Source: a virus
Lineage: Duplodnaviria; Heunggongvirae; Uroviricota; Caudoviricetes
Reading direction: 5' to 3' (one strand)
Length of the DNA: 64,000 bases
IMG/VR virus record: IMGVR_UViG_3300043436_001089
Shown here: positions 13,330 through 54,548 of the stretch, piece by piece
How the letters are laid out: each line of letters starts with the position of its first letter
Position numbering within the stretch: position 1 is the stretch's first letter
Made by a program: the position numbers and the translations under genes
Notes under the pieces: model-generated
Told to the model about the DNA's origin: nothing
The model's database searches: none
Seen by the model: the letters and a program-made list of their open reading frames with translations, nothing else

Positions 13330-13631
13330 GCTTCTGCTTCTACTTTAACTTGTAGCGGGAATCCCTGACTACGTGCATCAAGTGTAACTTCAATACCCTT
13401 TTGCTCTGCTATTTCGTATGGCAATACAGCAACAACTGCACTTCCAGTATCGTGAATACTATTAGTGATATCAGCCGCAGTAGCAGTCGTGTAATCAAAA
13501 TAATCAATTAATGACGTAACTACAAATTCCATGCTTGTTACATCATCGTTAAAGTAAATAATCTTGAACAACGGTGGTTCCGCAAGTGTTGTGATCGGCT
13601 TGATTTTAAGTTTAGTTTCTGTTTTTGACAT
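13326..13631 (-). CDS. clpS: ClpS-like ATP-dependent Clp protease adaptor
   Basis: 101 aa. The core ...YKIIYFNDDVTSMEFVVTSLIDYF... matches the ClpS fold sequence pattern. Confidence 0.7.
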   Translation of the reverse strand: MSKTETKLKIKPITTLAEPPLFKIIYFNDDVTSMEFVVTSLIDYFDYTTATAADITNSIHDTGSAVVAVLPYEIAEQKGIEVTLDARSQGFPLQVKVEAEA

Positions 13632-38977: not shown

Positions 38978-40470
38978 AAATCAGACATTTAATGGAAGGC
39001 ACTGAGCCAAAGATGCCCGGCGCACCCAGTGGTATACAAATTATGACACCTCAGCAATTCGTTGCTAAAGCTGGTGACATGCCCGGTGAAGAATCAGAAG
39101 AAGGTGTGGCGGAAGTTAGTGATGCTACGCTAACCAGTTATCTAACAAAATTAGATAGAGATAACCTTAAGCACAGAATGGATCCCACAAAACGCAGTGA
39201 CGCAAAACGTATGAAAAGTGGTCCTAATTTTGTTAAAGCGTTTACCAAATTGGATAATAGAAAGCAAGGTGTGGCGGAAGGTGAAGAACACTTATCAAGA
39301 ATTCGTAAACTATCTGGCTTAGAAGAAGCAACTAAACTACCAGCACAAAGTCGTGAGTTTGGTGGTGATGAGTTTCAAGACTATATGAAGCGTATTGTCG
39401 GTACACCCGATGTAGACAAAGCAGGTAATGTCAAGACTGACAAGAAGGGCAATGAAAAGTATGTGTCTGGTAAAACTAAGAGTGACAGATACAAGATGCC
39501 CTACATCCATCGTTCAAGTGTAGTGTCATACTTAAGTCCTGATGGTAAGACATATGATGAAGACGCAGTTAAGAAGACATTAGCAATTCGTCCTAAAGCA
39601 TTATTAAAGCAAAACGAAAAGATGAAGCACAGTAACGGTGAGTTTGAACAATTCTTTAACGTTGGCTTTGCAGCATTGACTGGTATCGCACTAGATGAAC
39701 AAACTAACAACTTAATCATTGTTAATACATGTCCAGGTGCTGGCTCATGTAAAGTAGATTGTTTCGCTATGAAGGGTGGTAAAGTTCAGTTCCAAGGTCC
39801 GTGGCAAAGTGACGGTCGTATCTTGACATATCTATTGAACGACCCAGATGGTTTCTTCAACCAACTAAGTGCCGAGATTACAAAAGAATCTGAAGCAGGT
39901 AAAAAGGGCGATAAGAAATTCCCTAATGGTTGGCAAACAACTGTTCGTTGGCACGATGCTGGCGACTTCTTCAGCCCAGAATACTTAGACTTAGCATTGA
40001 AGATGGCTGCAAAGCACCCTGATGTTAAGTTCTATGCCTACACTAAGATGGCTGGCGCCGCTCTTGCTAAAAAGCCAGACAACTTCATTATCAACTGGAG
40101 TGAAGGTGCTCATACAAGCCAAGAGAAACAAGTCAAGGCAAGCGATGCTAACTTAGATACAACTAAGAACAGTCGCATTGTCCCTGACGAACTATTCCAA
40201 GATTTGTTAGTTAAGGACGAAAAGAAGAACTTAGTTAAAGGGGAACAAGGCCAATGGCAAGTACAACCTGACAAGTTACCTGAACTAAAACAAAGATTGG
40301 CCAGTGAGTATGGACTAAGTGCTAACAGTATCTTATCATATGATGAATATATGGCTAAGCGCAAATCAATCCCTCAAGGTATGAAGTACAATGTTATCGT
40401 TGCCCCGGGTGAAGGTGATATCAGTGCTAATGACCAAAATATTATATCAACATTGCTATTGAGACACTAA
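38974..40470 (+). CDS. Hypothetical 498-aa protein (plus-strand island)
   Basis: Shine-Dalgarno AGGAA before ATG 38974. A Cys cluster CPGAGSCKVDC is present. No family recognised. Confidence 0.5.
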   Translation: MKIRHLMEGTEPKMPGAPSGIQIMTPQQFVAKAGDMPGEESEEGVAEVSDATLTSYLTKLDRDNLKHRMDPTKRSDAKRMKSGPNFVKAFTKLDNRKQGVAEGEEHLSRIRKLSGLEEATKLPAQSREFGGDEFQDYMKRIVGTPDVDKAGNVKTDKKGNEKYVSGKTKSDRYKMPYIHRSSVVSYLSPDGKTYDEDAVKKTLAIRPKALLKQNEKMKHSNGEFEQFFNVGFAALTGIALDEQTNNLIIVNTCPGAGSCKVDCFAMKGGKVQFQGPWQSDGRILTYLLNDPDGFFNQLSAEITKESEAGKKGDKKFPNGWQTTVRWHDAGDFFSPEYLDLALKMAAKHPDVKFYAYTKMAGAALAKKPDNFIINWSEGAHTSQEKQVKASDANLDTTKNSRIVPDELFQDLLVKDEKKNLVKGEQGQWQVQPDKLPELKQRLASEYGLSANSILSYDEYMAKRKSIPQGMKYNVIVAPGEGDISANDQNIISTLLLRH

Positions 40471-41286
40471 TAACAACTGATCCATCGTATACAAGTTACG
40501 CATATAGGGTGATACGTTCTCTAATACAGAGACCTCAATATCACCCTTTCTTCTTGGGCCCTTTATTACGTCAAAGTCAACATCATTGACTTTCTGAAAT
40601 AAGTTAACAATTTCTTTGACAGTATATCCCACACCATGACCTAGACATTCTATACCATTACTAGGTTTCTCAATTGCTTGCATCAATGCATCGCATATCT
40701 CATTGACATGAACATAGTCCCTGACACAAGTTCCGTCGCTTGTTCTTTCGTAGTCAGTACCAAAGATAGTAAACTCACCGGTCTCACGTGCTTTTATTAA
40801 ATTGTACATTAACCCGTCAGGATTAGTTGGAGCAAAGCCATCACTACCAATCACGTTGTAAAAACGAAAGATGGTATGTGGTGTAGGTCTGTGTTTTGTG
40901 CAGAATTCTTTAACAACATCCTCTGCCGCACGTTTACTAATACCATAAGCACTTTCACAACCATCTGCGGCACCGGTGCTAGCAAAGATAAAGTTCTTGG
41001 TCTTTATCTTATTCAATATATTCATAGTACCATTCAGGTTAGTAATGTAGTATTGAATAGGTATATGTTCGCTCTCTCCGACATTGACCAATGCAGCCAA
41101 ATGAATGACTGCATCATAATCGTTATCTAATACAAACTGTCTACGAATGTCTATTGTATTATGAGCTTTAGGTTCGATTTGCGGAGGGTTAATATCAAGC
41201 CCGTGAACTTCATATTCATCTTGTAACATCTTTGTTAGATGTGAACCAATGTAACCCGAGTTACCTGTAATTAAAATCTTCTTCAT
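40456..41286 (-). CDS. NAD-dependent epimerase/dehydratase (short-chain, GalE-like)
   Basis: Rossmann motif ITGNSGYIGSHL and a catalytic YGISK (YxxxK). 276 aa. Confidence 0.8.
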   Translation of the reverse strand: MKKILITGNSGYIGSHLTKMLQDEYEVHGLDINPPQIEPKAHNTIDIRRQFVLDNDYDAVIHLAALVNVGESEHIPIQYYITNLNGTMNILNKIKTKNFIFASTGAADGCESAYGISKRAAEDVVKEFCTKHRPTPHTIFRFYNVIGSDGFAPTNPDGLMYNLIKARETGEFTIFGTDYERTSDGTCVRDYVHVNEICDALMQAIEKPSNGIECLGHGVGYTVKEIVNLFQKVNDVDFDVIKGPRRKGDIEVSVLENVSPYMRNLYTMDQLLLVSQ

Positions 41287-42647
41287 AATCCATCGAACAA
41301 GCTTGCACCTGTTTCTTCCTCTTCTGGTCTAAATGTAGGGTCTTTACTCAAGTAAGTATCGTTGTCGGTATACCATACGTTGATAAACTTATACTTGTTT
41401 GACAGCACTGATTCAAAATCCTCACGTGCTAAATGTTTGCGACCTAAGTCTTTGATATAATCACGGTACTTGATTGTCTCATATGTGTTGATCTTTGCCG
41501 AATTCGTATTACTGCGCTTTCCCACAAAGTCATCTAAAAACTTCACCCACTTAAGTGCTACTTGGTCGTCAAGTTGTTTGACATAATCAAGTGCCAAAGA
41601 AGGTTGATCTATTGCATACAACTGTTTGATTGTACTGGCTGCGTTACTAACATGAACTTTGTGATAGAAAATACTGTCAAAGTTATCTGACCAGTCTTGG
41701 TTATCTAACACAACACAAGGCATATGACCCAGACATTCTAAAAATGCAAAGGGATAGTTTTCACGCAAACTGGGCATAAAGAACACACTAGCACTACGGA
41801 CAAAGTCTACTTTCTCTTTACCGGTGATGCCTGCTTTGATTTCATAATCAGTAATACCCGCGTCTTGAAATGCTTTCTCGAACTTCTTTTGCCCGTTACT
41901 GTTAGTCATTACTTTACACGGTAATTGAGCTTCCTTCATAACTTTAATGTATGCTTCTGGGTTCTTGCCCTCTTCCCATCTACCAATGAACAATACACCC
42001 TTCTTGTCCCCTGTGTATTCTTCTAACAAGCCACGTTCACTCATTGGCATAGGTAGTAACTGGCAGTTAGTTGCACCATGTTTAGTTAGTTCATCAATGT
42101 TCTTTTGACTTTGCGTACCGATAATGATATCACTGAACTCCATATGCTTGTTATAGAAGTTGTGATAGCTATCCAAGAACACATCACTACCTTGACTTTC
42201 GCGGAAGATCATGCTATGCAAGTGAGTATAGAACACTACTGGAATATACTTGTTGACTGTCATTGCATACGCCGCAGTCATTGCTTCTTGTGTGTTGCAA
42301 ACAATCATGTCATATGCATTTTCTTCAAATGCTTCTAACAATGCTGTCCTAAAGTTGATAATCTTTTCAAAGTTTACGGTATCGCTAAATGCAAACGTAG
42401 CAGTATGGTTGTTGTATCGTAGTGGTTCTAAGGGCCATACTAAATTAGCACCTGCGTTTTCTACTACTTTGTCAAAAGTACCAGTCGGTGCTTTGTCTAA
42501 GATGATATCGACTTTCCAATTCAATCGACTACACATTTCTGTAAAGCTTTTACAGAATGAACCAATGCCCCCGTGGGGGATAAAGTGCTGGTCGCTTATT
42601 AAGAATGCAATTCGTTTATTATACAGTTTCATTCTGTCTTGCCCCAT
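41283..42647 (-). CDS. Glycosyltransferase, GT-B fold (GT4-like)
   Basis: FIGRWEEGKNP is an EX7E-type GT4 motif. 454 aa. Confidence 0.65.
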   Translation of the reverse strand: MGQDRMKLYNKRIAFLISDQHFIPHGGIGSFCKSFTEMCSRLNWKVDIILDKAPTGTFDKVVENAGANLVWPLEPLRYNNHTATFAFSDTVNFEKIINFRTALLEAFEENAYDMIVCNTQEAMTAAYAMTVNKYIPVVFYTHLHSMIFRESQGSDVFLDSYHNFYNKHMEFSDIIIGTQSQKNIDELTKHGATNCQLLPMPMSERGLLEEYTGDKKGVLFIGRWEEGKNPEAYIKVMKEAQLPCKVMTNSNGQKKFEKAFQDAGITDYEIKAGITGKEKVDFVRSASVFFMPSLRENYPFAFLECLGHMPCVVLDNQDWSDNFDSIFYHKVHVSNAASTIKQLYAIDQPSLALDYVKQLDDQVALKWVKFLDDFVGKRSNTNSAKINTYETIKYRDYIKDLGRKHLAREDFESVLSNKYKFINVWYTDNDTYLSKDPTFRPEEEETGASLFDGL

Positions 42648-42832: not shown

Positions 42833-43068
42833 TATACTATTCCTTTAAGTTTTGCTATTATAAATTCATTTTTTTTGTACCAGCGATCTTCAAACATCAC
42901 ATCGCCTGGGCCAAGTAACATAGCAGTTTGCTTATATGCATTTTCCATACATATAGTCTTACCACTAATGTGACATTTTTTCGGGAAGATTGCATATTTA
43001 AGTTCTGTACCTACACAGCATCTTTTAAAAGAATCTCCCATCGTTACACTGCCTATACTGTCTAGCAT
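42832..43068 (-). CDS. Hypothetical small Cys-containing protein
   Basis: 78-aa ORF. Confidence 0.4.
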   Translation of the reverse strand: MLDSIGSVTMGDSFKRCCVGTELKYAIFPKKCHISGKTICMENAYKQTAMLLGPGDVMFEDRWYKKNEFIIAKLKGIV

Positions 43069-43072
43069 TATG

Positions 43073-43255
43073 TTACCAACTAGTTACGTCAGTGATATCC
43101 ATCTTGATTGACTGCTTAGGGTCAAATTCAATAGTGGTAGTAGGACCTATACCACTAGTAGATTCTTCTGTTAATACAACTCTGTCAAGGTCGTACATTT
43201 CAAATACTTCCTTCAGTTTCTCAAATTGATTTCTTGTGATTACGATTTGTTTCAT
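43073..43255 (-). CDS. Hypothetical small protein
   Basis: 60-aa ORF. Confidence 0.35.
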   Translation of the reverse strand: MKQIVITRNQFEKLKEVFEMYDLDRVVLTEESTSGIGPTTTIEFDPKQSIKMDITDVTSW

Positions 43256-43485
43256 GTGTCAACTCCGTATACCTGTTTAATCCATTGCCTCATTGAGATA
43301 TTTTGAAACTCAACATTACTGTCACGCTTGCCACCTGGGTAAACAACAAACAGTTCGTTAGCCACATCTTTAATAATCAACTCAGCGAACTTATCAGCAT
43401 GTTCTACTCCCATCCATTTGCCGCTTGTATCAGTACCGGCATTCTTCATCATTTCTTTAATTCGTTCATTCATCAGGTGCCCCAT
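43252..43485 (-). CDS. Hypothetical small protein
   Basis: 77-aa ORF. Confidence 0.4.
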   Translation of the reverse strand: MGHLMNERIKEMMKNAGTDTSGKWMGVEHADKFAELIIKDVANELFVVYPGGKRDSNVEFQNISMRQWIKQVYGVDT

Positions 43486-44321
43486 TCGTTCTTAAACAAC
43501 GGTACTTGAAGTCTGTCACTGTAGCGCCATCCTCTGTTCATTGCCGCGATTGCTACATTCTTAGCGTTCATGCTATATAATGATTCAACCCCACCGCAAG
43601 GCATCAAGTATACGGGACCAGTAAAGCCACGCTTACGATATTCGTCAACTGCTTGTTCTGCTTCTCGTACATCATCTTCTGTAGCAACTACGAATTTCAA
43701 ATAAACAAAACCATACTGCTTATACTGAGAAATTACGTCAGGACAAATTGCTTCTTCCCACTTCTCACCGCTAATAGATAGCTTAGGACTGACTGAAAAA
43801 GTGATAGCATCTTTAGCACGATTGCGTTGCCATTCACGTATGTAGTTACCAAACTCCGGAGTAATGAGTTGTGTACCATTTGTCTCAAAGGTCATCTCTT
43901 TGAGACTTCTCATTTTCTCATGTGAAAGTAAGTCAGGATACGCTCTTTGCCATCCGAGAAGAGGTTCGCCGCCCGTAATAACAAGGTGCTCATCCATCCA
44001 ACGACCTCTAGGAAGTGTACCAACAATGCTGTCAGCAATAGAATCGGTGTCAAGCACAGGACTAAGATGTTTAAAAGCAGGGTCCCAAGATGCATAACTA
44101 TCACATCCCGTACTGACAAGTGGTAAGGATTTATAATCTGTAAAAGTTTCTGCTTTAATTGCAATTGTTTCCCTTTCTAAGCTCATTTCTCCCTTTGGCA
44201 TACCAAAGCCACCGCAAGTAAAGTTGCAACCGAATGTTCGTAAGAACACACTAGGGACTCCCATAAACTTGCCTTCACCTTGAATGCTGTAGAATAATTC
44301 TGAAATTTTAAGTTGACTCAT
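43473..44321 (-). CDS. queE: 7-carboxy-7-deazaguanine synthase QueE-like radical SAM enzyme (atypical Cys spacing)
   Basis: ELFYSIQGEGKFMGVPSVFLRTFGCN, HLVITGGEP, FETNGT and SVSPK align with E. coli QueE blocks. The cluster motif reads CNFTC and the third Cys is about 37 residues later (STGCDSY). Confidence 0.7.
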   Translation of the reverse strand: MSQLKISELFYSIQGEGKFMGVPSVFLRTFGCNFTCGGFGMPKGEMSLERETIAIKAETFTDYKSLPLVSTGCDSYASWDPAFKHLSPVLDTDSIADSIVGTLPRGRWMDEHLVITGGEPLLGWQRAYPDLLSHEKMRSLKEMTFETNGTQLITPEFGNYIREWQRNRAKDAITFSVSPKLSISGEKWEEAICPDVISQYKQYGFVYLKFVVATEDDVREAEQAVDEYRKRGFTGPVYLMPCGGVESLYSMNAKNVAIAAMNRGWRYSDRLQVPLFKNEWGT

Positions 44322-45396
44322 AATTTTTTATACTGTGTAAGTTTCCCAAGATAATTCTAGGGCTGTTGAAGATCGGATCTTGTAATAGATCCTGCAATTC
44401 TTTCTTTTCCAATTCGGGCATTTCAAAATTTGTATGAAATGCAGAGTCAGACAAGTGACCCCATTGTACTACTAAGTTGAAGTAAACGCTAGTCAAATGG
44501 CTATATTCAAGTTGCCATTTTGCAAAGTCTACTATCTCTTTGTAGTTGTTGCGCTGTACAGTGAAGTTAGTTTGGAACTGTTTTAAATTTTTAAATGACC
44601 CATTCTTTATGATTTCATTCAATGATTCTAAGTTCCTTTTCACTTTATCTAGTGATCCGTTTTTCCGTACAACTGAGTAAGTGTCATTAGTTGCCGCATC
44701 AATACTGATATTGATATGACTGATGCTATCCCACAAATGTTGCATGTCATTTAATCGAGAGTCTGTCATTAAGATACCGTTAGTTAACAATTTCAATGAT
44801 AGATTTTCATTAGGTTCTAGATTCTTAATATAGTTCCAATAGGTAGGACTAGCGAATGCATCACCGCTGCCTGTGATGTTCAACGTTAGCTTTTCACCTC
44901 GACTTAACAGATAGTCAATCAATTCTTTGACTCGATTATGCACACGTGTTATCAATGCATTTTCGTCTAATTGAAACAATATCAATTCATTTCTACAGCT
45001 AGGGCATTGTAAGTTACATGATTGGTCATAACTAAAGTTAATAACAATAGGCTGTCGTGCTTTCTCATGTTGAAGCATAGGTAAAGGAACTATGTATCCC
45101 GGTATATGCTTCCCATTAAGTATAGAGTTAATGAAAGGACAATGGTCATTACATTCAGTAAACTTACCCTTATCCATATCATTGATTAATGATACTCTGT
45201 TGAAGTTAGTTAGTATCTCTTCCGGAGTATCAGTTAACACATTGCCGAACATCTTAGGTAACCAAGAAAAACAACAGACAGATATATCACCTGAAGGGTG
45301 TATCTCAATATATTTTGATATACGGTAGCATCCATAACTAGTTAGTTTGGATTCAGGAACTATATACTTATCTGCTGATTTTATAACGTAATGCAT
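44308..45396 (-). CDS. Radical SAM enzyme with extra N-terminal Cys-rich domain
   Basis: Canonical CNLQCPSC (CX3CX2C). N-terminal Cys cluster CCFSW...CNDHCPF. 362 aa. Confidence 0.65.
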   Translation of the reverse strand: MHYVIKSADKYIVPESKLTSYGCYRISKYIEIHPSGDISVCCFSWLPKMFGNVLTDTPEEILTNFNRVSLINDMDKGKFTECNDHCPFINSILNGKHIPGYIVPLPMLQHEKARQPIVINFSYDQSCNLQCPSCRNELILFQLDENALITRVHNRVKELIDYLLSRGEKLTLNITGSGDAFASPTYWNYIKNLEPNENLSLKLLTNGILMTDSRLNDMQHLWDSISHINISIDAATNDTYSVVRKNGSLDKVKRNLESLNEIIKNGSFKNLKQFQTNFTVQRNNYKEIVDFAKWQLEYSHLTSVYFNLVVQWGHLSDSAFHTNFEMPELEKKELQDLLQDPIFNSPRIILGNLHSIKNYEST

Positions 45397-45546
45397 TACC
45401 AGTGCCTAATCACGCCTGCAACAATAAACAAGTTTGTTGTTATGTATGACAACACAATTAAAGAACGAATGATAGCAACACTGTCAGACTCCTGATCCGT
45501 AGCGCCGGCTTTCTCCCCTAGTGCTTTCGCCCAGATACGCCAAAGA

Positions 45547-46101
45547 TTACGCAAACAAGTCCTCATTCCACTCACGATGACCTTCACGATAAGCCATGTT
45601 AGATTGTGTCTCACGTACTTCAACACGATAGCACCATAGACGCTTGGCTTCACCATCACCCCACATATCAGGGATGTAAACACCATTCACATACTTGTAA
45701 AGCATATCTGCTAAACTCTCGCAACCAATTCGTGGTAGAATGGTTAGTTTAGCTAACTTCTTTTCTTGTAACATTTTGAATGTTTCAAGTTCGGGATCGT
45801 CTTGTGCGACTAGTAATGTATGGTCAAACTGATCCTCAAGAATCTTTTTCAATTCTTTAAGACCACCGTAGTCAGCCGCCCAGTTACGAACGTCTAGATC
45901 GTTTGTACCGAAATAGAATTTCATACTGAAACTGTACCCGTGAATCATGTTGCAGTGACTATCTGCACGCCACTGTCGATAAGCGCACGGGAATGAATCG
46001 TGATATTCTTTTGTGCTAGTATACTTATAAGTCACTGGTCTAGTGTTTTGTAAGTTTTCTTCTATGTGACGAATTAAGTCACCTGTTGATGAGTTTGCCA
46101 T
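45547..46101 (-). CDS. queD: QueD-like 6-carboxy-tetrahydropterin synthase (PTPS family)
   Basis: CNMIHGYSF matches the CxxxHGH zinc motif region. FDHTLLV matches LDHHYLN of E. coli QueD. It is longer than the E. coli protein (184 aa). Confidence 0.65.
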   Translation of the reverse strand: MANSSTGDLIRHIEENLQNTRPVTYKYTSTKEYHDSFPCAYRQWRADSHCNMIHGYSFSMKFYFGTNDLDVRNWAADYGGLKELKKILEDQFDHTLLVAQDDPELETFKMLQEKKLAKLTILPRIGCESLADMLYKYVNGVYIPDMWGDGEAKRLWCYRVEVRETQSNMAYREGHREWNEDLFA

Positions 46102-46176
46102 TATTTTCTCCTATGTTAATTATAGCATAGGACGCAGAATTTGTATACCGGGATGAGCCCATAAGGCCGGTTATCT

Positions 46177-46974
46177 TTATTTACCAAATCCCAAAGATTT
46201 GCGAATTTTTGTTGCACTAATATTATGAGTAGCATCATCAAAAACTTCTTGTTCAATGGTATAACCCACATCACGACCATATGTAATGTTAGTGATATTT
46301 GGAACTACTTGAATTTCATATTGACCTTGATAAAGCATGTCCAAATCACGCTTGATAAAGTTCTTTACTTGGTCAATTGCAAATGGGTTAGTTCCATTCC
46401 ATCCTTGGCAGTCACGTATTTGAATGACAACTTGCCCAGTCTTAGCAATAGCACGTTCAAACAACTTACGATGTCCTTCGTGCCAGGGTTGCCAGCGACC
46501 TAACATCTGTACAGTTTCTTTTTGCCAATTAAATACGGGTCTGCGTCTATCATCTAGTATATGTGCGGCAATAAACTCACCCCACTTTTCACCGTGTTGC
46601 TCGGTGATTCTGAAATCATACTGTTCAGGTGGAATAAATGCTTTGTTGGTATCTTCGTATCGACCCTTGTCAATCGTATCTACCCACACAGTCCAATCTG
46701 CTTTGAAGTTATTACGCATTTCAACTAATGGTGCAACAAAATCACAGATAACATAATCATATTCTGTCATTGTATCTGCTAGTTGACGCATACGATGACT
46801 TTGACGAATACGACCTTCTGTGCTAAAGTCCCAGTCATTGTACTTTTTACGCACATCATCCGCGTTTAGCCAGCCTACTTTTTTCTTTTCATTTTGTAAA
46901 TACTCTAGTACATATTGTGCTAGGTAAGTTTTTCCTGCGCCCGGAAGACCCATTACTAAAATTCGATATGTCAT
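46177..46974 (-). CDS. Fusion of P-loop kinase and HxGH nucleotidyltransferase
   Basis: N-terminal Walker A VMGLPGAGKT. C-terminal WQPWHEGHRKLF (HxGH), the signature of the cytidylyl/adenylyltransferase superfamily. Confidence 0.6.
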   Translation of the reverse strand: MTYRILVMGLPGAGKTYLAQYVLEYLQNEKKKVGWLNADDVRKKYNDWDFSTEGRIRQSHRMRQLADTMTEYDYVICDFVAPLVEMRNNFKADWTVWVDTIDKGRYEDTNKAFIPPEQYDFRITEQHGEKWGEFIAAHILDDRRRPVFNWQKETVQMLGRWQPWHEGHRKLFERAIAKTGQVVIQIRDCQGWNGTNPFAIDQVKNFIKRDLDMLYQGQYEIQVVPNITNITYGRDVGYTIEQEVFDDATHNISATKIRKSLGFGK

Positions 46975-46996
46975 TTATATAACTCCATTATTATTT

Positions 46997-47716
46997 TTAA
47001 CTAATTTTTATATTTAAATTTCTTGCAATTAACTTGTTTATTCTCGAATAAGTAGTTCCACTTGAATCCATTTTTTGAGTGACCATTTCTTTTATTTCTG
47101 TATAATTTTCTGGTCTAGGAGTAAACAGTAATTCAGGAGAAATAATCTCAGTATCTTCGAGCCACACATCTAAGTCAATGGGGCCATCAAAATCATCCAT
47201 CAATTTATTACAATATAAACTACGATAGATTGCATACTCAAGATGTTCTCTATTGTATGGGATTGGGTCGTGAATATTTTTAGGTATGTCTATGATATTA
47301 TAGTAAGCCCAGTACCCCTCTTTTCCACTATTACTAGTTGTACTTCTTACCAGTTCAATATAAAAACTAGTTATTTGGTCTATTATATTACGCCGACAAA
47401 TTCTTATTACATAGCACTCGTTATTCTTAATACTGTCAGCTACCATTAATCTTTGATTATTAAGTATGTTATCCAGCGGTCCTGCCTCAAGAAGTTCAGG
47501 GTACATTAATTCATCTATATGAGTTTTTAATATGTACGGTTGTTTACTATTCATAAGATCAGATAATTCTGTTTTTTCTTTTGATGCAATATTAAAGGGT
47601 TCATTAATGAATGGGATACCTAAGTGTCTTTTGAGTTCAAGAGATAGCGCCGTAGAACCTGTTCTCGGAGCAGATAAAATAATTACTGGAAATTTTGTTA
47701 TGTTATATTTGTTCAT
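46997..47716 (-). CDS. Sulfotransferase (PAPS-dependent, Stf0/NodH-like)
   Basis: The 5'-PSB-like SAPRTGSTAL (PRSGST motif) and the 3'-PB-like RRNIIDQITS (Rx7S) are both present. Confidence 0.55.
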   Translation of the reverse strand: MNKYNITKFPVIILSAPRTGSTALSLELKRHLGIPFINEPFNIASKEKTELSDLMNSKQPYILKTHIDELMYPELLEAGPLDNILNNQRLMVADSIKNNECYVIRICRRNIIDQITSFYIELVRSTTSNSGKEGYWAYYNIIDIPKNIHDPIPYNREHLEYAIYRSLYCNKLMDDFDGPIDLDVWLEDTEIISPELLFTPRPENYTEIKEMVTQKMDSSGTTYSRINKLIARNLNIKIS

Positions 47717-47737
47717 ATATTATTCTATTTACGCTTT

Positions 47738-48040
47738 TTATCGGTATAATTCCAAAAGCATCTTATACTTATCATACGCTTCACTGATTGCCGGGTGTCT
47801 TTTACGCATCCATGCTTCGCTTCTCTGATCTTGCCACAGTAGATCATACTCATGGTCTATCCTGACCAATTGTTCAAATCCACTACGTGTAATTTCTATT
47901 TCAATAAGTTCTTCACGGTTAGTGTAGTAACCAGCAGTTTGATTGTAACCATAGTTAATAGTCTCAAAATTACGGTCACGAACTACCTGCACATGTTTGA
48001 CACTATATTTATTAATGAATGAATCGTAAAAATTACTCAT
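47738..48040 (-). CDS. Hypothetical protein
   Basis: 100-aa ORF. Confidence 0.4.
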   Translation of the reverse strand: MSNFYDSFINKYSVKHVQVVRDRNFETINYGYNQTAGYYTNREELIEIEITRSGFEQLVRIDHEYDLLWQDQRSEAWMRKRHPAISEAYDKYKMLLELYR

Positions 48041-48510
48041 TGTTGACCTCTTTTGTTGGTTTCACTATCATAGACACGTTTACGTAGGCTACTGGAGCTG
48101 AAGGAGTGATCTCTACCGTTAAAGACAATTTCGATGGATCTGAGCTTGCATTCACCTTTACCACTGAATTCCTTATCGGCATATTCGACACCAAGGATTC
48201 TGACATCCACCGGTAGTATGAGTAAGAGGTCAACGAGGTCCTGCTCTGTACTATACACAACCACTTCGTCAACGTAACGACACGCCGCCAACTGGATTTG
48301 ACGTTCCACAATGCTTTGAACAGGCTTGTTTTTAGTGTCAGGCCTATCAATTGTAGGATCACTTTGAAGTCCGCAAATAAGGTAGTCGCAATGGTTTCTT
48401 GCTTCACTGAGCATTGCGATATGTCCTGCGTGAAGCATGTCGAAGGTTGAGAATGTGATTCCAATTCGTTTGCCTTCTTGTTTAAGTTTTTTAACATGAT
48501 TAAATATCAT
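48037..48510 (-). CDS. Cytidylyl/adenylyltransferase (HldE/RfaE domain II or TagD-like)
   Basis: TFDMLHAGH (HxGH) in a 157-aa single-domain protein. Confidence 0.65.
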   Translation of the reverse strand: MIFNHVKKLKQEGKRIGITFSTFDMLHAGHIAMLSEARNHCDYLICGLQSDPTIDRPDTKNKPVQSIVERQIQLAACRYVDEVVVYSTEQDLVDLLLILPVDVRILGVEYADKEFSGKGECKLRSIEIVFNGRDHSFSSSSLRKRVYDSETNKRGQQ

Positions 48511-48847
48511 CTGGTAGTATTTCCTCTAACTCAGTTTCATCCTCAAAGTAATGAACATGATAAGTTTTACCTGCATGTTCATATACATCAGTGAAAGAAC
48601 GTTGATTGTTGGTTGACTCAATTGGTTCCAATAATCTGAACACAGTAAACAAGTGCTCACGTTCAGTACCCTCAATCTTACGTTTATCAGGTCCCATGAC
48701 TTTACGCATGAACTCTTTGAGTTTGATAGGATCACTAGCGATTCTATCAGCAGCCTCTTGAATCCAGTCAAGATTTGTTTTTGCAGTCACAGTTACGTCC
48801 TTGGTTACAGTTGCCGGTGCAATCGCTCTTCGGTAATCTACGAACAA
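48500..48847 (-). CDS. Hypothetical protein
   Basis: 115-aa ORF. Confidence 0.4.
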   Translation of the reverse strand: MFVDYRRAIAPATVTKDVTVTAKTNLDWIQEAADRIASDPIKLKEFMRKVMGPDKRKIEGTEREHLFTVFRLLEPIESTNNQRSFTDVYEHAGKTYHVHYFEDETELEEILPDDI

Positions 48848-48892
48848 CTGTTATAGCGATGACAACTACTATTAGTAGAATAATGACTGTCA

Positions 48893-49570
48893 TTACTTAC
48901 CTTTGTTTGCAATCTGCAAGAACTCTGCACGTGCCGCTGGATCAGTTTTGAACCCGCCGCCTAATCGACAAGTAACAGTGCTTGAACCTGTATCTTCTAC
49001 GCCGCGACTCTTAACGCAATAGTGTTGTGCGTCAATCATAACTGCCACGTCCTCTGTTTCAAGTATGAATTGTAGCGTATGGAAAATCTGCTCTGTGAGG
49101 CGCTCTTGAATCTGCGGGCGTTTTGAAAAATACTCAACAATACGGTTGATCTTACTGAGTCCCAAGACTTTTTGCTTAGGAACATATGCAACAGTAGCCA
49201 AGCCGTCAATAACGACAAAGTGATGTTCGCAATTACTTTGGACGTTGACGTTACGCTCAACGACCATTTCGTTGTAGTGCATTTTGTTGTCCACGGTAGT
49301 GCATTTTGGGAACGCTTCATAATCTAAACCCCAGAAGATTTCGTTGACATACATCTTAGCAACACGCTTTGGTGTGTCAATCAAACTATCGTCTGTTAAG
49401 TCAAGACCGAGCGTTTCCATAATATATGCAAAGTGAAGTTCGATTTTATCAATCTTTTCTTTACGGTCTATACTATTAGGTTTTGTAGGTGTCTCAACAC
49501 CCATTTTGACTAAGTATTCGTGTACTTTTTGACCCAACTCTGGGTCTGTTTTTGTTTTATTATAACTCAT
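48893..49570 (-). CDS. folE: GTP cyclohydrolase I (FolE)
   Basis: CEHHFVVIDGLATVAYVPK, GLSKINRIVEYFSKRPQIQERLT and HYCVKSRGV align with E. coli FolE. The start is taken at MSYNKT after Shine-Dalgarno AAGGAAGG. Confidence 0.85.
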   Translation of the reverse strand: MSYNKTKTDPELGQKVHEYLVKMGVETPTKPNSIDRKEKIDKIELHFAYIMETLGLDLTDDSLIDTPKRVAKMYVNEIFWGLDYEAFPKCTTVDNKMHYNEMVVERNVNVQSNCEHHFVVIDGLATVAYVPKQKVLGLSKINRIVEYFSKRPQIQERLTEQIFHTLQFILETEDVAVMIDAQHYCVKSRGVEDTGSSTVTCRLGGGFKTDPAARAEFLQIANKGK

Positions 49571-49636
49571 AGATAACCTTCCTTTGTGATGGTTTTGTTT
49601 TGACATTGTGCTACCGTTGTGTAGCACAAGTATTTA

Positions 49637-49930
49637 TCATTCTTCGTCAACGATACAAAGAATATCTTCTTCTTTCATGACGATGAAATCTTGATTACCA
49701 ACTGTAATCTTTTGAGGACCTGATTGATTGTAGATTACAACGTCTCCCTCTTTTACTTCAGGTGTAGCGAAGGTTCCGTCCTCTAGTCTGCGACCTTTGC
49801 CTACCTTGAATACAGTGCCACGGGGCAATTTCTCTTGAGCCGAATCAGGGATATAAAACCCCGATTCAGTTCTAGTCTTTGCTTCCTGCGGTTTGACCAA
49901 GATGCGGTCATTTGCTGGAGTCAATGCCAT
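49637..49930 (-). CDS. groES: Co-chaperonin GroES (Cpn10)
   Basis: The 97-aa pattern ...DRILVKPQEAKTRTESGFYIPDSAQEKLPRGTVFKVGKGRRLEDG... matches the GroES mobile loop and beta-barrel. Confidence 0.8.
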   Translation of the reverse strand: MALTPANDRILVKPQEAKTRTESGFYIPDSAQEKLPRGTVFKVGKGRRLEDGTFATPEVKEGDVVIYNQSGPQKITVGNQDFIVMKEEDILCIVDEE

Positions 49931-49932
49931 GA

Positions 49933-50127
49933 TTAAGCCTTAGCTTTTGCTTCTGCACGTGCGGCTTTTTCTGCTGTAATTTCATTACGGCGAGCCTTAA
50001 CTGCTTTAGCTAGTTCTGCTAGTGCTTTGCGGGCACGTGTGCCTGCTGCCGCATTACCTGCAACAAACTTAGTATTTTCTGCGTTGTATGCAGCCAGTTG
50101 TGTTTCGATATCATTGTGTGCGCTCAT
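49933..50127 (-). CDS. Small basic Ala/Lys-rich protein (histone-like tail)
   Basis: The start is trimmed to MSAHNDIE after Shine-Dalgarno AAGGAG. The C-terminus is AEKAARAEAKAKA. Confidence 0.4.
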   Translation of the reverse strand: MSAHNDIETQLAAYNAENTKFVAGNAAAGTRARKALAELAKAVKARRNEITAEKAARAEAKAKA

Positions 50128-50137
50128 TAGTTTCTCC

Positions 50138-51325
50138 TTAAAATTTTGCTTCACGTGTGTGTTTGCGATAGTCTGTTGACATACGCAAATATTGTTCACC
50201 CTTGCCTTCAAGGATGTCACAAATTCTGTCTATAGTCCCGTCATTGCGTTGTGCGATAGCACCTTGATTATAATGAGGATCTCTTAGTAATGGGTGCAGT
50301 TTGTTAATAGCATCGTCAATAGACCAAGGCACGTAAAGTCTAGATGCATCATTTGCAAAAGTTTCTGGGAAACTCCTATAAGCAGGATACAAGACATTGC
50401 AACCAAGAGCATCCGCTTCGGATACGGTGTTGCTAACCCAGTCTTGTAAAGCGCAATTAAAGACAACACGACTATTGTTGACAATATTATAATAATCATT
50501 TTTACTCAAGTCCTCATGCAACGTAAGTAATCCGCGACTTACTAAGTCACGTGTGCGATCCATGTAACTATCGTTATTAGATTTCAGTTTGCTACCAGAG
50601 CAAACACAGAACTCTACGTTGTTACCATAACGCTCATGCCATTCTTCAATTAGATCCATATAGAAGTCAGGCTGCTTCTCTTGATCCCAACGTGCTGAAA
50701 AGACAACACGCATTGCCCGTTCTTCAAACGGTTTAATTTGATGCTGTACACGCTCACGTACTTCTTCCATGCCAAATGCTAGTCCACTGATATTGTAGAT
50801 CGGGACTTCCCAACCTGCAATCTTCATGTGCATGACCATTTCTTCATTAGTTGCGAGGATCGCACCACCACTCTGGCTAACAGCTTCGCAGACCATCTTC
50901 TCATAGGAACCCATCCACTTGGCCATCCCCCAAACGTGAACAAAGTCATCAGGGTCGATTGACTGCGCAAGACAGCGCACATATATCTTAGGGCGATGTG
51001 CTTCACTAACTTGATTAAGAATATAAGGCAAGCTCTCAAAGCCCGGCTGAAACATATCTTCAAAATAGATAACATCTTCATTATTGATTTTACCTTGTTT
51101 CATCCACATAACAAGATTCATCATCTGACTCATAGCAAAATAGCTACGACCATGTGCATCTAGTACTTGACCGGTTACAATAGATTCTTCATTGTCTAGT
51201 GTTTCACCGGGTACGATTACATACTGAATCTTGCGTTTCTCAAATGCACGTGTGTTCCACTGCTGTAGTTGCAATGTGTACCGTGCTTTATAGGGTTCTA
51301 GTCCCATGTAAATAAGTCTACGCAT
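50138..51325 (-). CDS. Putative glycosyltransferase (GT-B-like)
   Basis: 395 aa. ARWDQEKQPDFYMDLIEEW resembles the GT4 EX7E region. Weak evidence. Confidence 0.45.
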   Translation of the reverse strand: MRRLIYMGLEPYKARYTLQLQQWNTRAFEKRKIQYVIVPGETLDNEESIVTGQVLDAHGRSYFAMSQMMNLVMWMKQGKINNEDVIYFEDMFQPGFESLPYILNQVSEAHRPKIYVRCLAQSIDPDDFVHVWGMAKWMGSYEKMVCEAVSQSGGAILATNEEMVMHMKIAGWEVPIYNISGLAFGMEEVRERVQHQIKPFEERAMRVVFSARWDQEKQPDFYMDLIEEWHERYGNNVEFCVCSGSKLKSNNDSYMDRTRDLVSRGLLTLHEDLSKNDYYNIVNNSRVVFNCALQDWVSNTVSEADALGCNVLYPAYRSFPETFANDASRLYVPWSIDDAINKLHPLLRDPHYNQGAIAQRNDGTIDRICDILEGKGEQYLRMSTDYRKHTREAKF

Positions 51326-52085
51326 TATTTTTTCTTTCTATATCTTCTTCGTTGCATTCTTCACCATATTGAATCTCTACGATTCTACAAGGTGTCTTAT
51401 ATGGATTACTTAGTCTATGCCAATCACCTTGTGGAATTTGTACTTGACTGAATGTTGTTAGTTCCATTGAAGGCAATGCATAGCCACTAGGCATAGTCAT
51501 GTCAAGGATACAATTACCTTCAGTCACGTGCCAAAATTCGTGTCGCTTGAAATGTCGTTGCATACTCAGACTTTGACCGGGATTTACTGTTAATTCTTTT
51601 ACCTTGCATCCTTGCACATCATGTAGTATACGATAGTATCCCCATTGGCGCAACGTTTTTGGTTGTTTCCATTCACGTAGAATCCAACTGCTCGAATTCT
51701 TTTTATCATTTCCACCGACACCAAATACAAATTCTATGTTGTCGTCTTCAACATCCATTTCTGGAATGTTATCATGTGTTCTATCTCCGCCGTTAGCAAA
51801 GATAATAGTTGCTTCTGGGAATTTCTCCCTCACTGCGTAGATAGCATACTTTGCAGTATTGTCTACATCGTCAAAATTTATTACCCAATCTACTGGATCT
51901 AAATTTCCTACAATGGTTAGTCTTTCATCAAACGGCATAAAAGGTTGGCCCTTTTTACGAGCCAACCAATCATCACTGTTGAGACCAACTACTAAGTTGT
52001 CGCCCAATTCTTTAGCGGCTTTGAGATAACTGACATGTCCAGAATGTACAGGGTCAAAGCCTCCAGTGACTAATACAATTTTCAT
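51318..52085 (-). CDS. Heptose-1-phosphate adenylyltransferase-like (HldE domain II) fused to C-terminal cupin
   Basis: VTGGFDPVHSGHVSYLKAAKELGDNLVVGLNSDDW...VDWVI aligns closely with E. coli HldE domain II. The C-terminus has the cupin motif QRHFKRHEFWHVTEG. Confidence 0.65.
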   Translation of the reverse strand: MKIVLVTGGFDPVHSGHVSYLKAAKELGDNLVVGLNSDDWLARKKGQPFMPFDERLTIVGNLDPVDWVINFDDVDNTAKYAIYAVREKFPEATIIFANGGDRTHDNIPEMDVEDDNIEFVFGVGGNDKKNSSSWILREWKQPKTLRQWGYYRILHDVQGCKVKELTVNPGQSLSMQRHFKRHEFWHVTEGNCILDMTMPSGYALPSMELTTFSQVQIPQGDWHRLSNPYKTPCRIVEIQYGEECNEEDIERKNNA

Positions 52086-52288
52086 CGAATAATTGCTTCT
52101 GCCCACATGTCTTTGGGTGACTTGTTAGTCATCCATTTCTCAAACTGACGAAACGCAAAGCTTCGGCGGTCATAGAGAGTTGACTCGTCAAACTTGTATC
52201 CATAGTCCTGACAGAATTCAAGATATTTTTCCAAGTCTTCAAAAATTTGACGGACACGTGGATTGGGTTGAAAAGAAGGTTTTGCCAT
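52082..52288 (-). CDS. Hypothetical small protein
   Basis: 68-aa ORF. Confidence 0.35.
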   Translation of the reverse strand: MAKPSFQPNPRVRQIFEDLEKYLEFCQDYGYKFDESTLYDRRSFAFRQFEKWMTNKSPKDMWAEAIIR

Positions 52289-52967: not shown

Positions 52968-54548
52968 TTATTCTCCTAAAACTTCATTGATTGCGTCATC
53001 ACTATCCTCAATGATTTCATCAATCTCTGGCTCACTACTATTTACTTCAAATAATTGGTCAAACATAGTCATAGCATTTTCAGTTTTCTTACCGCTGATA
53101 CCTTGACTACCTGATTGAAACTGCTTCCAGTAACTGTTATGATAGTTGATAACATCTAATGCTTCTTGTTTAGTCTTCTTACTAAAGATTTCATCAACAA
53201 TATTTTTAAAAAAGCTATCACCGTCTAATTTATGAACTAACATCTTAGGCACAACACCCTGCGCATATTGACGATTAGCTTCTTGAACAGCATTCATATG
53301 CATCCAAACATTATGACTCTGAATCAATGTATAGCTCAATGTATCCCAACTAGTTTTAGTTTCTTTACCATGTGCACCTAAGAAGCCTTGACCCCTATAG
53401 CATACGTCCTTAACGACTAGTTTATCAGTTACTGGACTATCTGTAAAGAGTTTATGGACGCCGTCATTAATAATAGCATCACTAAACTTACGTTGGTCAC
53501 CACCGGGCATACCTGTTTGAGGTACACCGTACTTCTTATCATCTAGAGTTTTTTCCATACTATACGCCCACTTTTTATTGTGTTCAATACTAGTGTTGAA
53601 ATAACCTAGACCTTTAGCCGCACTATAGAACGGGCTTGCACAGTCAAATGTAATTTGAAGCTTTGGATTATGATACTTGCGGATAGCTTTCTGAATGTCA
53701 GTGAACAATACTGCATACTCTAAAATACTTGTACCTAAACAGTGAATCAAGTCATGCTTGCCTTCTTGTAATAGACCATCATGGATGATATCAACCATAC
53801 GTGTTAGCATTAAGTGAACGTCAATTTTGTTCTGTCCTCCAAACGCCCATCCGTTGAAGTGATTATCCGGATAGATATTTGGATCGCAATACTTTTTCAT
53901 TTCAAGATACCAATCATCAGATTGTGTATGATTGCGACCTTGCAATACGTTTAAGAACTTGCATTTACCCGAACGATGCTTTATAAAGTATTCGTTGTTA
54001 ATATGTGTAGCAGTGATAGCTTCTTCAATAGTACTAATACCGTGAGCACTCTTGCCTGTCTTAGGATCCTTGATATGAAAGGTAGTCAAGGATTGTGATG
54101 GGATATCAAGACACATACCATAGTCCATGTATGTGTCCATCCACGTGAGAACTTCTTTACGTTTCTTCATAGCACGTGGGCAGTTAGGATCTTTCCAATC
54201 AGCAGGCCACTGACATTTCAAAATCTGAAATCCACCTGAGTCACCCAACATGAAAGTACCTTCTTCACGTTCACGTATGATACTCTCACTAGAATCATTT
54301 TTCATTGGATCTAAGTTAGCATGACCAGCAGAGTACAAACCCCACTTATAAGTATACACACCTTCTTTACTATTTAAGAAATTTAATTTTTCAACATCAC
54401 CATTAAACCCTGCAGGAATACGTGATTGGTCAAAATAGTTTTCACCTTTACGCTGTTTACCTAAGCCGGCAATATAGAACGAACTTACTGCTGGTAAAAA
54501 CAGTGCCCATTCAGGGTCTTGTTTTGCTGATAGATTATCTTGTTGCAT
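52968..54548 (-). CDS. dpdA: DpdA-like DNA-guanine transglycosylase (TGT superfamily)
   Basis: FMLGDSGGFQILK matches the catalytic DSGG[FY]Q motif of tRNA-guanine transglycosylases. It lies next to folE, queD and queE, as in phage 7-deazaguanine DNA modification clusters. 526 aa. Confidence 0.65.
   Translation of the reverse strand: MQQDNLSAKQDPEWALFLPAVSSFYIAGLGKQRKGENYFDQSRIPAGFNGDVEKLNFLNSKEGVYTYKWGLYSAGHANLDPMKNDSSESIIREREEGTFMLGDSGGFQILKCQWPADWKDPNCPRAMKKRKEVLTWMDTYMDYGMCLDIPSQSLTTFHIKDPKTGKSAHGISTIEEAITATHINNEYFIKHRSGKCKFLNVLQGRNHTQSDDWYLEMKKYCDPNIYPDNHFNGWAFGGQNKIDVHLMLTRMVDIIHDGLLQEGKHDLIHCLGTSILEYAVLFTDIQKAIRKYHNPKLQITFDCASPFYSAAKGLGYFNTSIEHNKKWAYSMEKTLDDKKYGVPQTGMPGGDQRKFSDAIINDGVHKLFTDSPVTDKLVVKDVCYRGQGFLGAHGKETKTSWDTLSYTLIQSHNVWMHMNAVQEANRQYAQGVVPKMLVHKLDGDSFFKNIVDEIFSKKTKQEALDVINYHNSYWKQFQSGSQGISGKKTENAMTMFDQLFEVNSSEPEIDEIIEDSDDAINEVLGE

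Follow-up and report, generated by a model that had tools for sequence, protein, structure and literature searches.

Two adjacent genes in a 64,000-nt stretch of DNA from a tailed phage (Caudoviricetes; IMG/VR record IMGVR_UViG_3300043436_001089), here called the window, were analysed, and are on balance likely to form a phage sulfation module, in which one protein supplies 3'-phosphoadenosine 5'-phosphosulfate (PAPS) and the other uses it as donor. The upstream open reading frame (ORF), 46997-47716, is assigned with good confidence to a PAPS-binding sulfotransferase fold, and the downstream one, 46177-46974, encodes a fusion of a putative adenosine 5'-phosphosulfate (APS) kinase and a small nucleotidyltransferase. 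An initial annotation, made from the sequence alone, had described both ORFs, and their extents, their placement on the minus strand and every motif quoted for them were recovered. The pair is laid out as follows.

46997-47716, minus strand: sulfotransferase-like (ST-like) ORF, 239 aa, Stf0-like sulfotransferase-fold candidate
46975-46996, minus strand: intergenic spacer, 22 nt, with a GGAG Shine-Dalgarno sequence and no terminator
46177-46974, minus strand: kinase-nucleotidyltransferase fusion, 265 aa
46531-46974, minus strand: kinase domain of the fusion, residues 1-148, APS-kinase-like P-loop domain
46177-46530, minus strand: nucleotidyltransferase domain of the fusion, residues 149-265, minimal HxGH domain of ~115 aa

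The two genes thus lie 22 nt apart on the same strand, the GGAG is placed 9 nt ahead of the fusion ATG, and promoter-like and terminator-like matches around the pair were barely above shuffled expectation. In the proposed mechanism, the kinase domain would, by homology, phosphorylate the 3'-OH of APS to give PAPS, and the compact, Stf0-like product of ORF 46997-47716 would, judging from its motifs, fold and family, bind PAPS via the PRTGST loop and R108/S117, move the sulfuryl group to an acceptor hydroxyl and release PAP (adenosine 3',5'-bisphosphate). The weakest step is the supply of the kinase: the 115-aa HxGH domain might adenylylate a small anion in an ATP-sulfurylase-like reaction, so that the fusion would amount to a miniature PAPS synthase whose domains are ordered as in the animal enzyme, and should that step be wrong, APS would be made by the host.

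Sulfotransferase-like protein and kinase domain

Both PAPS-binding signatures reported in the initial annotation are present in the ST-like protein: the 5'-phosphosulfate loop PRTGST at residues 17-22 (window 47651-47668), and an R-x7-S stretch, RNIIDQITS, at residues 109-117 (47366-47392), the 3'-phosphate motif at residues 108-119 reading RRNIIDQITSFY. Two further motifs, unmentioned there, are KTH (residues 64-66) and (W/Y)-x-E-D (E187-D188); K64 and H66 may, by sequence resemblance rather than superposition, correspond to the KTH(L)P catalytic motif of the cytosolic enzymes. A word-indexed search of 5.8 billion proteins returned eight clusters of relatives, every one labelled "hypothetical", and an exhaustive hidden Markov model search of 1.84 billion cluster representatives returned 522 relatives at E<=1e-3 (311 at E<=1e-10), mostly of 185-225 aa among the best 150 of the 522. 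No PHROG or NCBIfam family matched the protein, and tblastn against 50,697 cultured-phage records gave 0 matches, so that the family is sizeable and devoid of annotation.

In an alignment of 82 members, R18, K64, R108, Q114 and E187 are invariant (82/82), G20 (81/82), S21 (78/82), S117 (81/82) and H66 (70/82) are retained in most sequences, and E39, P40, Y119, D188, P202, N204 and Y205 are nearly invariant. These residues fall into four conserved blocks, S-x-P-R-T-G-S-T, K-x-H, R-(R/K)-(N/D)-x-x-x-Q-x-x-S-x-Y and (Y/W)-x-E-D, in the order found in PAPS sulfotransferases. Since the motifs are invariant or nearly so across all 82 sequences, the resemblance exceeds chance. The 82-sequence profile, searched against the PDB, matched Stf0 best (1tex, E 6.7e-5), with an alignment that takes in the loop as well as the R...Q..S motif and, in HMMER, with the 3'-phosphate motif paired with "IHIHRPDVVSQAVSFW" of Stf0; the CurM sulfotransferase and NodH were weaker matches, with their loops aligned, and no kinase was among the matches. 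An 8-sequence profile of the same family gave zero PDB matches. Searched individually against Pfam (E<=0.01; best E of any member 4.6e-6), 23 of the 82 members matched Sulfotransfer_3, 15 matched Stf0 and 5 matched Sulfotransfer_1.

The neighbouring protein was confirmed as a Walker-A kinase joined to an HxGH nucleotidyltransferase, with GLPGAGKT at residues 9-16, HEGH at 165-168 and ISATKIR at 252-258. Residues 1-148 are best described as an APS-kinase homologue. The Pfam APS_kinase model matched the fusion at 4.2e-11 (43.5 bits against a cut-off of 21.1, model positions 4-94 of 152), a single-sequence PDB search placed APS kinases on top, and a 15-sequence kinase profile found APS kinases down to 1.6e-11, with PSTK next at ~1e-5. 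A Foldseek search of the PDB with an AlphaFold2 model (predicted local distance difference test scores of 75-93 over residues 1-80 of the kinase part) returned APS kinase or PAPS synthase chains in all of the top 48 positions, PAPSS1 first. A dNMP kinase, the assignment named in the initial annotation as fatal to its proposal, is ruled out by these Pfam, PDB profile and Foldseek results.

The domain carries the motifs GLPGAGKT, NADDVR, DWDFS, GRIRQ, FVAP and KGRY, with the APS-site stretch DWDFSTEGRIRQ; NADDVR is DGDAVR in the Xylella phage homologue. Across 15 sequences, with identity down to 39%, D39, R42, F50, R55, R57, Q58, F79 and P82 are invariant, and GLPGxGKT, D-x-V-R, D-W-D-F-S, G-R-x-R-Q and F-V-x-P are kept even in the 39%-identical Xylella phage homologue and likewise in a 53%-identical kinase-only form. 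The invariant positions presumably match the Arg, Phe, Arg and Asn that contact APS in APS-kinase structures, together with the F-I-S-P strand. Departures from the APS-kinase motifs are Asn to Gln and, in F-I-S-P, Ser to Ala, and the lid is shorter than that of CysC.

Linkage of the two genes across phages

In 9 of 11 sampled members of the ST-like family, the gene adjoins the kinase or is fused to it. In a 174-kb relative of the window (L002) the module is complete and the two genes are direct neighbours in swapped order, its ST protein being only 49% identical to that of the window and its core proteins 83-89%; on the contigs of P0004 (55%) and P0008 (37%), a gene for a 157-aa cytidylyltransferase-like enzyme (NT157, the most frequent upstream neighbour of the kinase fusion among relatives), the kinase fusion, the ST-like gene and QueD follow in order. 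Six more distant representatives, sampled at random, were examined (P0129, P0131, P0140, P0135, P0160 and P0200): the kinase fusion begins right past the ST-like stop codon in P0129, P0131 and P0140, and the kinase domain finishes just ahead of the ST-like start in P0135; P0160, on 0.9-kb contigs with only a 61-aa non-kinase fragment downstream, is scarcely informative, and on the 3-kb contig of P0200 no kinase adjoins the ST-like gene. In P0210 (336 aa), the ST-like domain is fused to an APS-kinase-like domain without a nucleotidyltransferase domain; this form was found on 8 contigs, the 4 shown (L017-L020, e.g. L017:3500-4510) each stemming from a separate sequencing run, and its neighbours, among them Cpn10, a clamp loader and PhoH, are those of a phage. 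The kinase-only forms (P0210, L107) point to the kinase as the domain whose work is coupled with that of the transferase.

The kinase fusion was also surveyed independently of the ST-like family. At least 580 relatives were found in IMG/VR, and the best 80 loci, 81-93% identical to the window protein, were analysed. A Sulfotransfer_3 gene lies within 7 kb on the same strand at 34 of these loci and is directly adjacent at 26 (25 upstream, 1 downstream), and the partner protein scores above the Pfam cut-offs along its entire length (62 bits for Sulfotransfer_3, with a cut-off of 27, and 45 bits for Sulfotransfer_1). At seven loci (eight with L084, which also has an adjacent gene) the Sulfotransfer_3 domain lies inside a 590-615-aa protein. 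None of the Sulfotransfer_3-bearing loci has FolE, QueD or QueE, their neighbours including RCC1-repeat propellers, Lcl_C-domain proteins and UDP-galactopyranose mutase. The initial annotation held that sulfotransferases are rare in phages, which is true of cultured phages only: the ST-like family is absent from the 50,697 records and the Sulfotransfer_3 type occurs in 10 of them, but sulfotransferases are common in metagenomic phage contigs.

Cyanophages (S-SKS1, S-SRM01, S-SCSM1) and OM43 phages have been reported to carry Sulfotransfer_3 genes whose "biological function ... remains unclear" (PMC10580990). Genes of the same type stand directly upstream of the kinase fusion at the 25 IMG/VR loci, whereas the cultured cyanophages are without the fusion, and the window protein belongs to another, smaller family. 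As far as the literature was covered, which was incompletely, no paper was found that links a phage sulfotransferase with an APS kinase, or that describes the ~200-aa family or a fusion of APS kinase with a domain like nicotinamide mononucleotide adenylyltransferase (NMNAT).

On this evidence from gene content and sequence, the ST-like and kinase genes appear to be functionally linked. Overall, the kinase fusion is the shared element and sulfotransferases of two or three unrelated families are its interchangeable partners, the pattern expected of a donor-supply enzyme with various client transferases. In phages of the window lineage, the ST-like gene is accessory: its GC content (31.2%, against 39% for the window) is the lowest of the cluster, and 16 relatives lack it.

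A possible third partner, ST2, is encoded near the end of the window.

62536-63165, minus strand: ST2, 209 aa, low-confidence sulfotransferase candidate; Pfam Sulfotransfer_3 1.3e-4, below cut-off
63162-63905, minus strand: TctC-like gene (tripartite tricarboxylate receptor family), directly preceding ST2

ST2 carries the motifs GAPGSKWSS, KSH and VHRxxD (VHRxxDxCLGWW), matches Pfam Sulfotransfer_3 weakly (E 1.3e-4 to 6e-3) and is 62% identical to L003:5027-5653. It is always preceded by the TctC-like gene, and at 9 further loci of the IMG/VR 80, as on the L003-L007 contigs, the kinase fusion follows the two within 0-5 kb downstream. ST2 gave no PDB match and no significant profile-profile match; as a candidate sulfotransferase it would possibly draw, as a second client, on the PAPS-supply enzyme. 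The 209-aa and 208-aa kinase neighbours in L003 were rejected as members of the ST-like family, hhalign being negative for both. A solute-binding-protein homologue encoded by a phage, such as the TctC-like protein, is odd in itself.

Three further observations concern the fusion and its partners elsewhere. The 590-615-aa proteins with an N-terminal Sulfotransfer_3 domain (L073, L075, L081, L084, L087, L088 and L090, e.g. L088:4850-6688) lie, at the two loci with neighbours scanned (L084 and L088), amid arrays of RCC1-repeat beta-propellers, and in L084 UDP-galactopyranose mutase adjoins the kinase fusion, a hint that sulfation in phages of this type is directed at a virion fibre protein or at the glycan on it. 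The fusion is 81-93% identical across the L021-L100 phages, in whose examined flanks no other gene in common with the window was detectable, and core genes of the window lineage are only 40-90% identical; identity of this degree suggests that the fusion is under unusually strong constraint or often transferred horizontally. Casjensviridae phages that infect Xylella, Stenotrophomonas and Xanthomonas have a more distant form of the fusion (37-41% identical), whose gene overlaps a COG3236 gene at the end of the latter (Xylella phage Bacata, L001:5565-6741; Sano, L101:14970-16143). COG3236 is a NADAR-like family tied to NAD/ADP-ribose metabolism, and the fusion may have a different or extra role in these phages.

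Nucleotidyltransferase domain and competing explanations

Residues 149-265 of the fusion carry GRWQPWHEGH, NPF (NPFAIDQ), YGRDVGY and ISATKIR, the HxGH signature itself being common to the whole nucleotidyltransferase superfamily. Pfam CTP_transf_like matched at 7.3e-5, and NCBIfam NMNAT families at ~1e-6, far short of their cut-offs (NF002243, 27.8 bits against 127). At ~115 aa the domain is ~55-65 residues shorter than NMNATs (168-181 aa), and its NMNAT alignments end near residue 65-80, so that it would lack the C-terminal half that holds nicotinamide riboside in those enzymes. YGRDVGY is invariant within the fusion family, and is likened here, by its motif and not from an alignment or a confident structure, to the GRD loop of ATP sulfurylase. 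The AlphaFold2 model of this half was too poor to use. Judged by sequence, the module would count neither as an ATP sulfurylase nor as a full-length NMNAT or an enzyme of the NadR/NARP3 type. That the domain adenylylates sulfate, making the fusion a miniature PAPS synthase, is put forward tentatively, with the chances somewhat against it; it is favoured because the fusion to an APS kinase is constant, the part of NMNAT for a large nucleophile is lost and an Arg-Asp motif is invariant.

The fusion is split into two ORFs in L037:9980-10792 (156 + 114 aa, with the break at the kinase/nucleotidyltransferase boundary) and in L111:505-1277 (203 + 52 aa). These splits are either frameshifts or errors, or a sign that the parts function as separate proteins.

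Several results weigh against a sulfation module. For the transferase, the window protein taken alone stays below the Pfam cut-offs (Sulfotransfer_3 E 8e-4, 20.1 bits against 27, over residues 10-51 only; Sulfotransfer_1 13.4 bits against 22), so that of the profile search proposed in the initial annotation only the family-level matches are positive. In profile-profile comparison with the canonical phage Sulfotransfer_3 family only the 5'-phosphosulfate loop aligns, and the ST-like family is for this reason regarded as a probable distant, compact branch of the sulfotransferases. The proposed fold comparison was likewise divided: sulfotransferases were among the matches, but in both fold searches P-loop kinases and MiaA nearly equalled them at low TM-scores, and fold search alone fails to separate the protein from an NMP-kinase-like fold. 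For the fusion, APS_kinase matches are limited to the first ~90 residues, NCBIfam equivalog cut-offs are not reached (TIGR00455, 32 bits against 138.7), no ATP sulfurylase chain was found at E<=10 in the PDB profile search and no PF01747 match was found, the relatives of the nucleotidyltransferase domain being NMN adenylyltransferases. For the linkage, the 80 loci are best matches with near-duplicates included, so that their counts are not independent; 16 close relatives have NT157, the fusion and QueD and lack, in the flanks examined, an ST-like gene; no sulfotransferase was detectable in Xylella phage Sano (the first 50 kb of its 56 kb searched) or in its relatives, all of which carry the fusion; and in four or five IMG/VR phage types the ST-like family occurs without a kinase within 10 kb.

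The first competing explanation, which we consider quite unlikely, is that the fusion is an NAD+ salvage or reconstitution enzyme, phosphorylating nicotinamide riboside and adenylylating NMN to counter NAD-depleting defences, with the ST-like neighbour unrelated. The only significant relatives of the C-terminal domain are indeed NadM-type and archaeal NMN adenylyltransferases (domain profile against the PDB: NadM NMNAT 2qjt 1.8e-7; archaeal MJ0541, 1f9a, 1.7e-5), with which it has GRxQPxHxGH, NPF and SxTxIR in common and whose G-R-W-Q-P form it shows in place of the Q-x-R-N-P of ATP sulfurylase. In Xylella-type phages the fusion adjoins the COG3236 gene, presumably of the NADAR type. A phage enzyme that combines NMNAT with nicotinamide riboside kinase, NARP3 Bas30_86, has been established experimentally (PMC13464706). 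Like NadR and NARP3, the fusion joins an HxGH adenylyltransferase with a P-loop kinase. It differs from them in its opposite domain order, in a kinase that is specifically of the APS-kinase family and keeps the motifs of that family, in the absence of any sequence match to them, in the loss of the NMN-binding half of the NMNAT fold and in having no PnuC-like partner among the neighbours examined. A tblastn search with the fusion against the 50,697 phage records found only phages of Xylella, Stenotrophomonas, Xanthomonas, Clavibacter and Ralstonia, and no NadR-like coliphage gene. The NAD explanation also gives no rationale for adjoining sulfotransferase genes of at least two families, or for the kinase-only fusion to a sulfotransferase domain.

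It is also improbable that the pair makes and uses a donor analogous to PAPS that carries no sulfate (3'-phospho-nucleoside-5'-diphospho-X), with the ST-fold protein transferring a phospho-type group. The fusion of an HxGH nucleotidyltransferase with an APS-kinase homologue is the enzyme logic that such a donor requires, the nucleotidyltransferase is by sequence no ATP sulfurylase, and sugar-nucleotide enzymes are plentiful in the cluster. Cj1415 of Campylobacter jejuni is said, in work of Taylor and Raushel from 2018, to be an APS-kinase homologue, and the arrangement as a whole resembles the O-methyl-phosphoramidate pathway of that organism. There, Cj1415 and Cj1416 are a cytidine diphosphoramidate kinase and a cytidylyltransferase, Cj1415-Cj1418 produce CDP-phosphoramidate 3'-phosphate, and this 3'-phosphorylated, PAPS-analogous donor decorates sugars (PMC11800397). 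The combination of a nucleotidyltransferase with an APS-kinase-like kinase is common to both systems; the Campylobacter enzymes, however, are separate proteins of a capsule locus, transfer phosphoramidate and are accompanied by a glutamine kinase and an amidohydrolase, homologues of which were not found among the neighbours examined here. Moreover, the partners that can be classified confidently are ordinary Sulfotransfer_3 and Sulfotransfer_1 proteins, and the ST-like family itself retains the 5'-phosphosulfate and 3'-phosphate residues of sulfotransferases.

As poor a prospect is a fusion that acts as a cysC-type auxiliary metabolic gene raising host sulfate assimilation or the host PAPS pool, with the ST-like ORF an independent accessory in a variable slot. 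Viral "cysC / adenylylsulfate kinase" genes are routinely called auxiliary metabolic genes (e.g. 10.1101/2020.02.13.942896). The fusion, with its IMG/VR stretches numbering at least 580, is far more widespread than any single sulfotransferase family, it occurs where no sulfotransferase is detected, and the slot beside it varies among relatives (PsiE, class II aldolase, endonuclease VII). Against this stand the absence of cysH, cysD and cysN among the neighbours examined, the great enrichment of sulfotransferase genes beside the fusion relative to cultured phages, and the occurrence of the transferase gene on either side of the kinase together with a covalent fusion of the two, which favour coupling over coincidence.

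Very improbable, finally, is a degenerate P-loop kinase-like or binding protein with convergent motifs as the product of ORF 46997-47716: fold-search scores of NMP kinases, shikimate kinase and MiaA are near those of sulfotransferases, Pfam scores are below cut-off and PHROG, NCBIfam and phage-database annotations are lacking, but four sulfotransferase signatures in correct order are invariant or nearly so, the family profile matches Stf0, the CurM sulfotransferase and NodH and no kinase, the Walker-A Gly-Lys is present at the loop position in 0 of 82 members (the loop being S-A-P-R-T-G-S-T), and linkage to an APS-kinase homologue is consistent.

Gene cluster, acceptor and significance

The window is a section of a large uncultured phage genome. 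Its DNA polymerase is T4-type, with the jumbo phages Phosso, Atu_ph07 and RaK2 nearest (44-49% identity), a ligase and a 5'-3' exonuclease are also encoded, and megablast of positions 43000-50000 against the 50,697 phage records gave zero matches. Nearly every gene between 40.4 and 54.6 kb is on the minus strand. In transcription order, the genes around the pair are as follows.

52968-54548, minus strand: TGT-like protein of 526 aa with a DSGGFQ motif, first in transcription order
between 52968-54548 and 51318-52106: small ORFs following the TGT-like gene
51318-52106: cytidylyltransferase-cupin fusion
50138-51325: GT-B-like protein, first of two
49637-49930: GroES, between the GT-B-like gene and FolE
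48893-49627, minus strand: FolE, GTP cyclohydrolase I (Pfam GTP_cyclohydroI 1.3e-60)
between FolE and NT157: 115-aa ORF
48037-48510, minus strand: NT157, 157-aa cytidylyltransferase-like enzyme (HldE domain II / TagD-like)
between NT157 and the ST-like ORF: 100-aa ORF
45547-46101, minus strand: QueD, 6-carboxytetrahydropterin synthase family (PTPS 1.4e-16), directly downstream of the fusion
44308-45396, minus strand: radical SAM enzyme with an N-terminal twitch/SPASM domain (NCBIfam N_Twi_rSAM 1.2e-11)
43473-44321: QueE, followed by small ORFs
41283-42647: GT-B-like protein, second of two
40456-41286: GalE-like epimerase, last in transcription order

The pair is flanked by QueD and FolE, as the initial annotation stated, with three more ORFs separating FolE from the ST-like gene. 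From this position it had suggested sulfation of a nucleotide or DNA base, an argument that proved weak: the pairing occurs in phages without queD, folE or queE, and the 16 relatives mentioned above keep the queD/folE module and the fusion without an ST-like gene. Of the function that it gave to the pair, sulfotransferase activity with supply of a sulfo donor is thus supported and the link to DNA or nucleotides is not. The likeliest acceptor, with the chances about even, is a sugar or glycan produced by the nucleotidyl-sugar and glycosyltransferase enzymes encoded nearby, and destined perhaps for DNA, for virion proteins or for the cell envelope, because the nearest characterised relative sulfates a sugar, the cluster has two GT-B-like proteins, three nucleotidyltransferases, a cupin and an epimerase, and partner genes elsewhere sit amid fibre-like proteins and Glf. 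Sulfate may also be used as a transient leaving group. A sulfated DNA hypermodification is improbable, and still more so is the joint proposal that the fusion is a self-sufficient mini PAPS synthase with a new minimal ATP sulfurylase and that the Stf0-like enzyme sulfates a hypermodification of phage DNA; in that scarcely probable case the hypermodification would be a glycosyl or 7-deazaguanine one, built by the TGT-like, FolE/QueD/QueE, glycosyltransferase and nucleotidyl-sugar genes. A literature search on phage sulfotransferases with 7-deazaguanine found nothing relevant.

Several features of the cluster were noted in their own right. The protein encoded by 52968-54548 has the DSGGFQ catalytic motif of TGT with no Pfam, PHROG or NCBIfam match, shows 32% identity with "hypothetical" proteins from jumbo Pseudomonas phages of the PA5oct type and 25% with a protein of Sinorhizobium phage Phosso, and is probably a divergent DpdA-like DNA transglycosylase. 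FolE, QueD and QueE are encoded in the window and no QueC-model match was found in it, so that the deazaguanine product may end at, or branch off from, 7-carboxy-7-deazaguanine; the sole PP-loop ATPase seen in the window (60286-60879) matches ATP_bind_3 (TilS-like). The slot between QueD and QueE is hypervariable in relatives, holding class II aldolase, PsiE, endonuclease VII or HNH-like genes (L025:11344-11964; L034:12051-12467 and 12915-13541; L111:2751-3152), and is filled in the window by the radical SAM enzyme. Like the ST-like gene, the gene for this enzyme is accessory and low in GC (34.5%), carried by the window and L002 and missing from the 16 relatives; an obligate unit of the radical SAM and ST-like genes is ruled out, L111 having the ST-like gene without radical SAM. 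A second radical SAM protein (495 aa, 58807-60294, plus strand) is encoded between the DNA polymerase and PP-loop ATPase genes. Chaperone-type genes of the window comprise a ClpX-like ATPase (14198-15397), a full-length DnaK (20096-21940; Hsp70, E 6e-260) and GroES, and L003-type phages with the kinase fusion code for DnaJ and ClpB. Sat, CysD and CysN were not found among ten larger ORFs screened elsewhere in the window (ClpX, DnaK, ligase, exonuclease and others).

By analogy, the sulfation module would work like known systems of PAPS supply and transfer. Stf0, the mycobacterial trehalose 2-sulfotransferase (1tex, PF09037), works with PAPS made by host CysNC; the phage family shares only 16% identity with it, has ~190-240 aa against 239 ordered of 287 residues in 1tex, is missed by the Pfam model at cut-off and, unlike Stf0, is phage-borne and linked to its own APS-kinase gene. 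PAPS synthases (animal PAPSS1/2; bacterial and fungal Sat-CysC, Aquifex 2gks) also fuse APS kinase to a nucleotidyltransferase of the HxxH superfamily, and in animal PAPSS, as in the phage fusion, the kinase is N-terminal; the second phage domain, however, is the ~115-aa, NadM NMNAT-like one and shows no detectable similarity to the ~400-aa ATP-sulfurylase module. Rhizobial NodPQ with NodH and Xanthomonas RaxQ with RaxST are dedicated gene sets for PAPS supply and sulfotransfer, in which private PAPS-making enzymes are likewise encoded with a specialised sulfotransferase for one secondary product; those sets are cellular, with a CysD/CysN-type sulfurylase, whereas the phage module is viral and has another second domain.

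Sulfation changes the charge and recognition of sugars, proteins and metabolites, and to our knowledge it has no established role in phage biology. The linkage described here joins "cysC" auxiliary genes, "hypothetical" 200-aa proteins and occasional Sulfotransfer_3 genes into one testable module, a probable donor-supply enzyme with interchangeable transferases, widespread among uncultured aquatic phages. Ecological surveys should accordingly treat viral "cysC" matches with caution, and not score them as genes of sulfur assimilation. Should the 115-aa domain prove to be a sulfurylase, it would represent a new, minimal way of activating sulfate, and if the sulfated-DNA proposal were true, DNA itself would carry sulfate.

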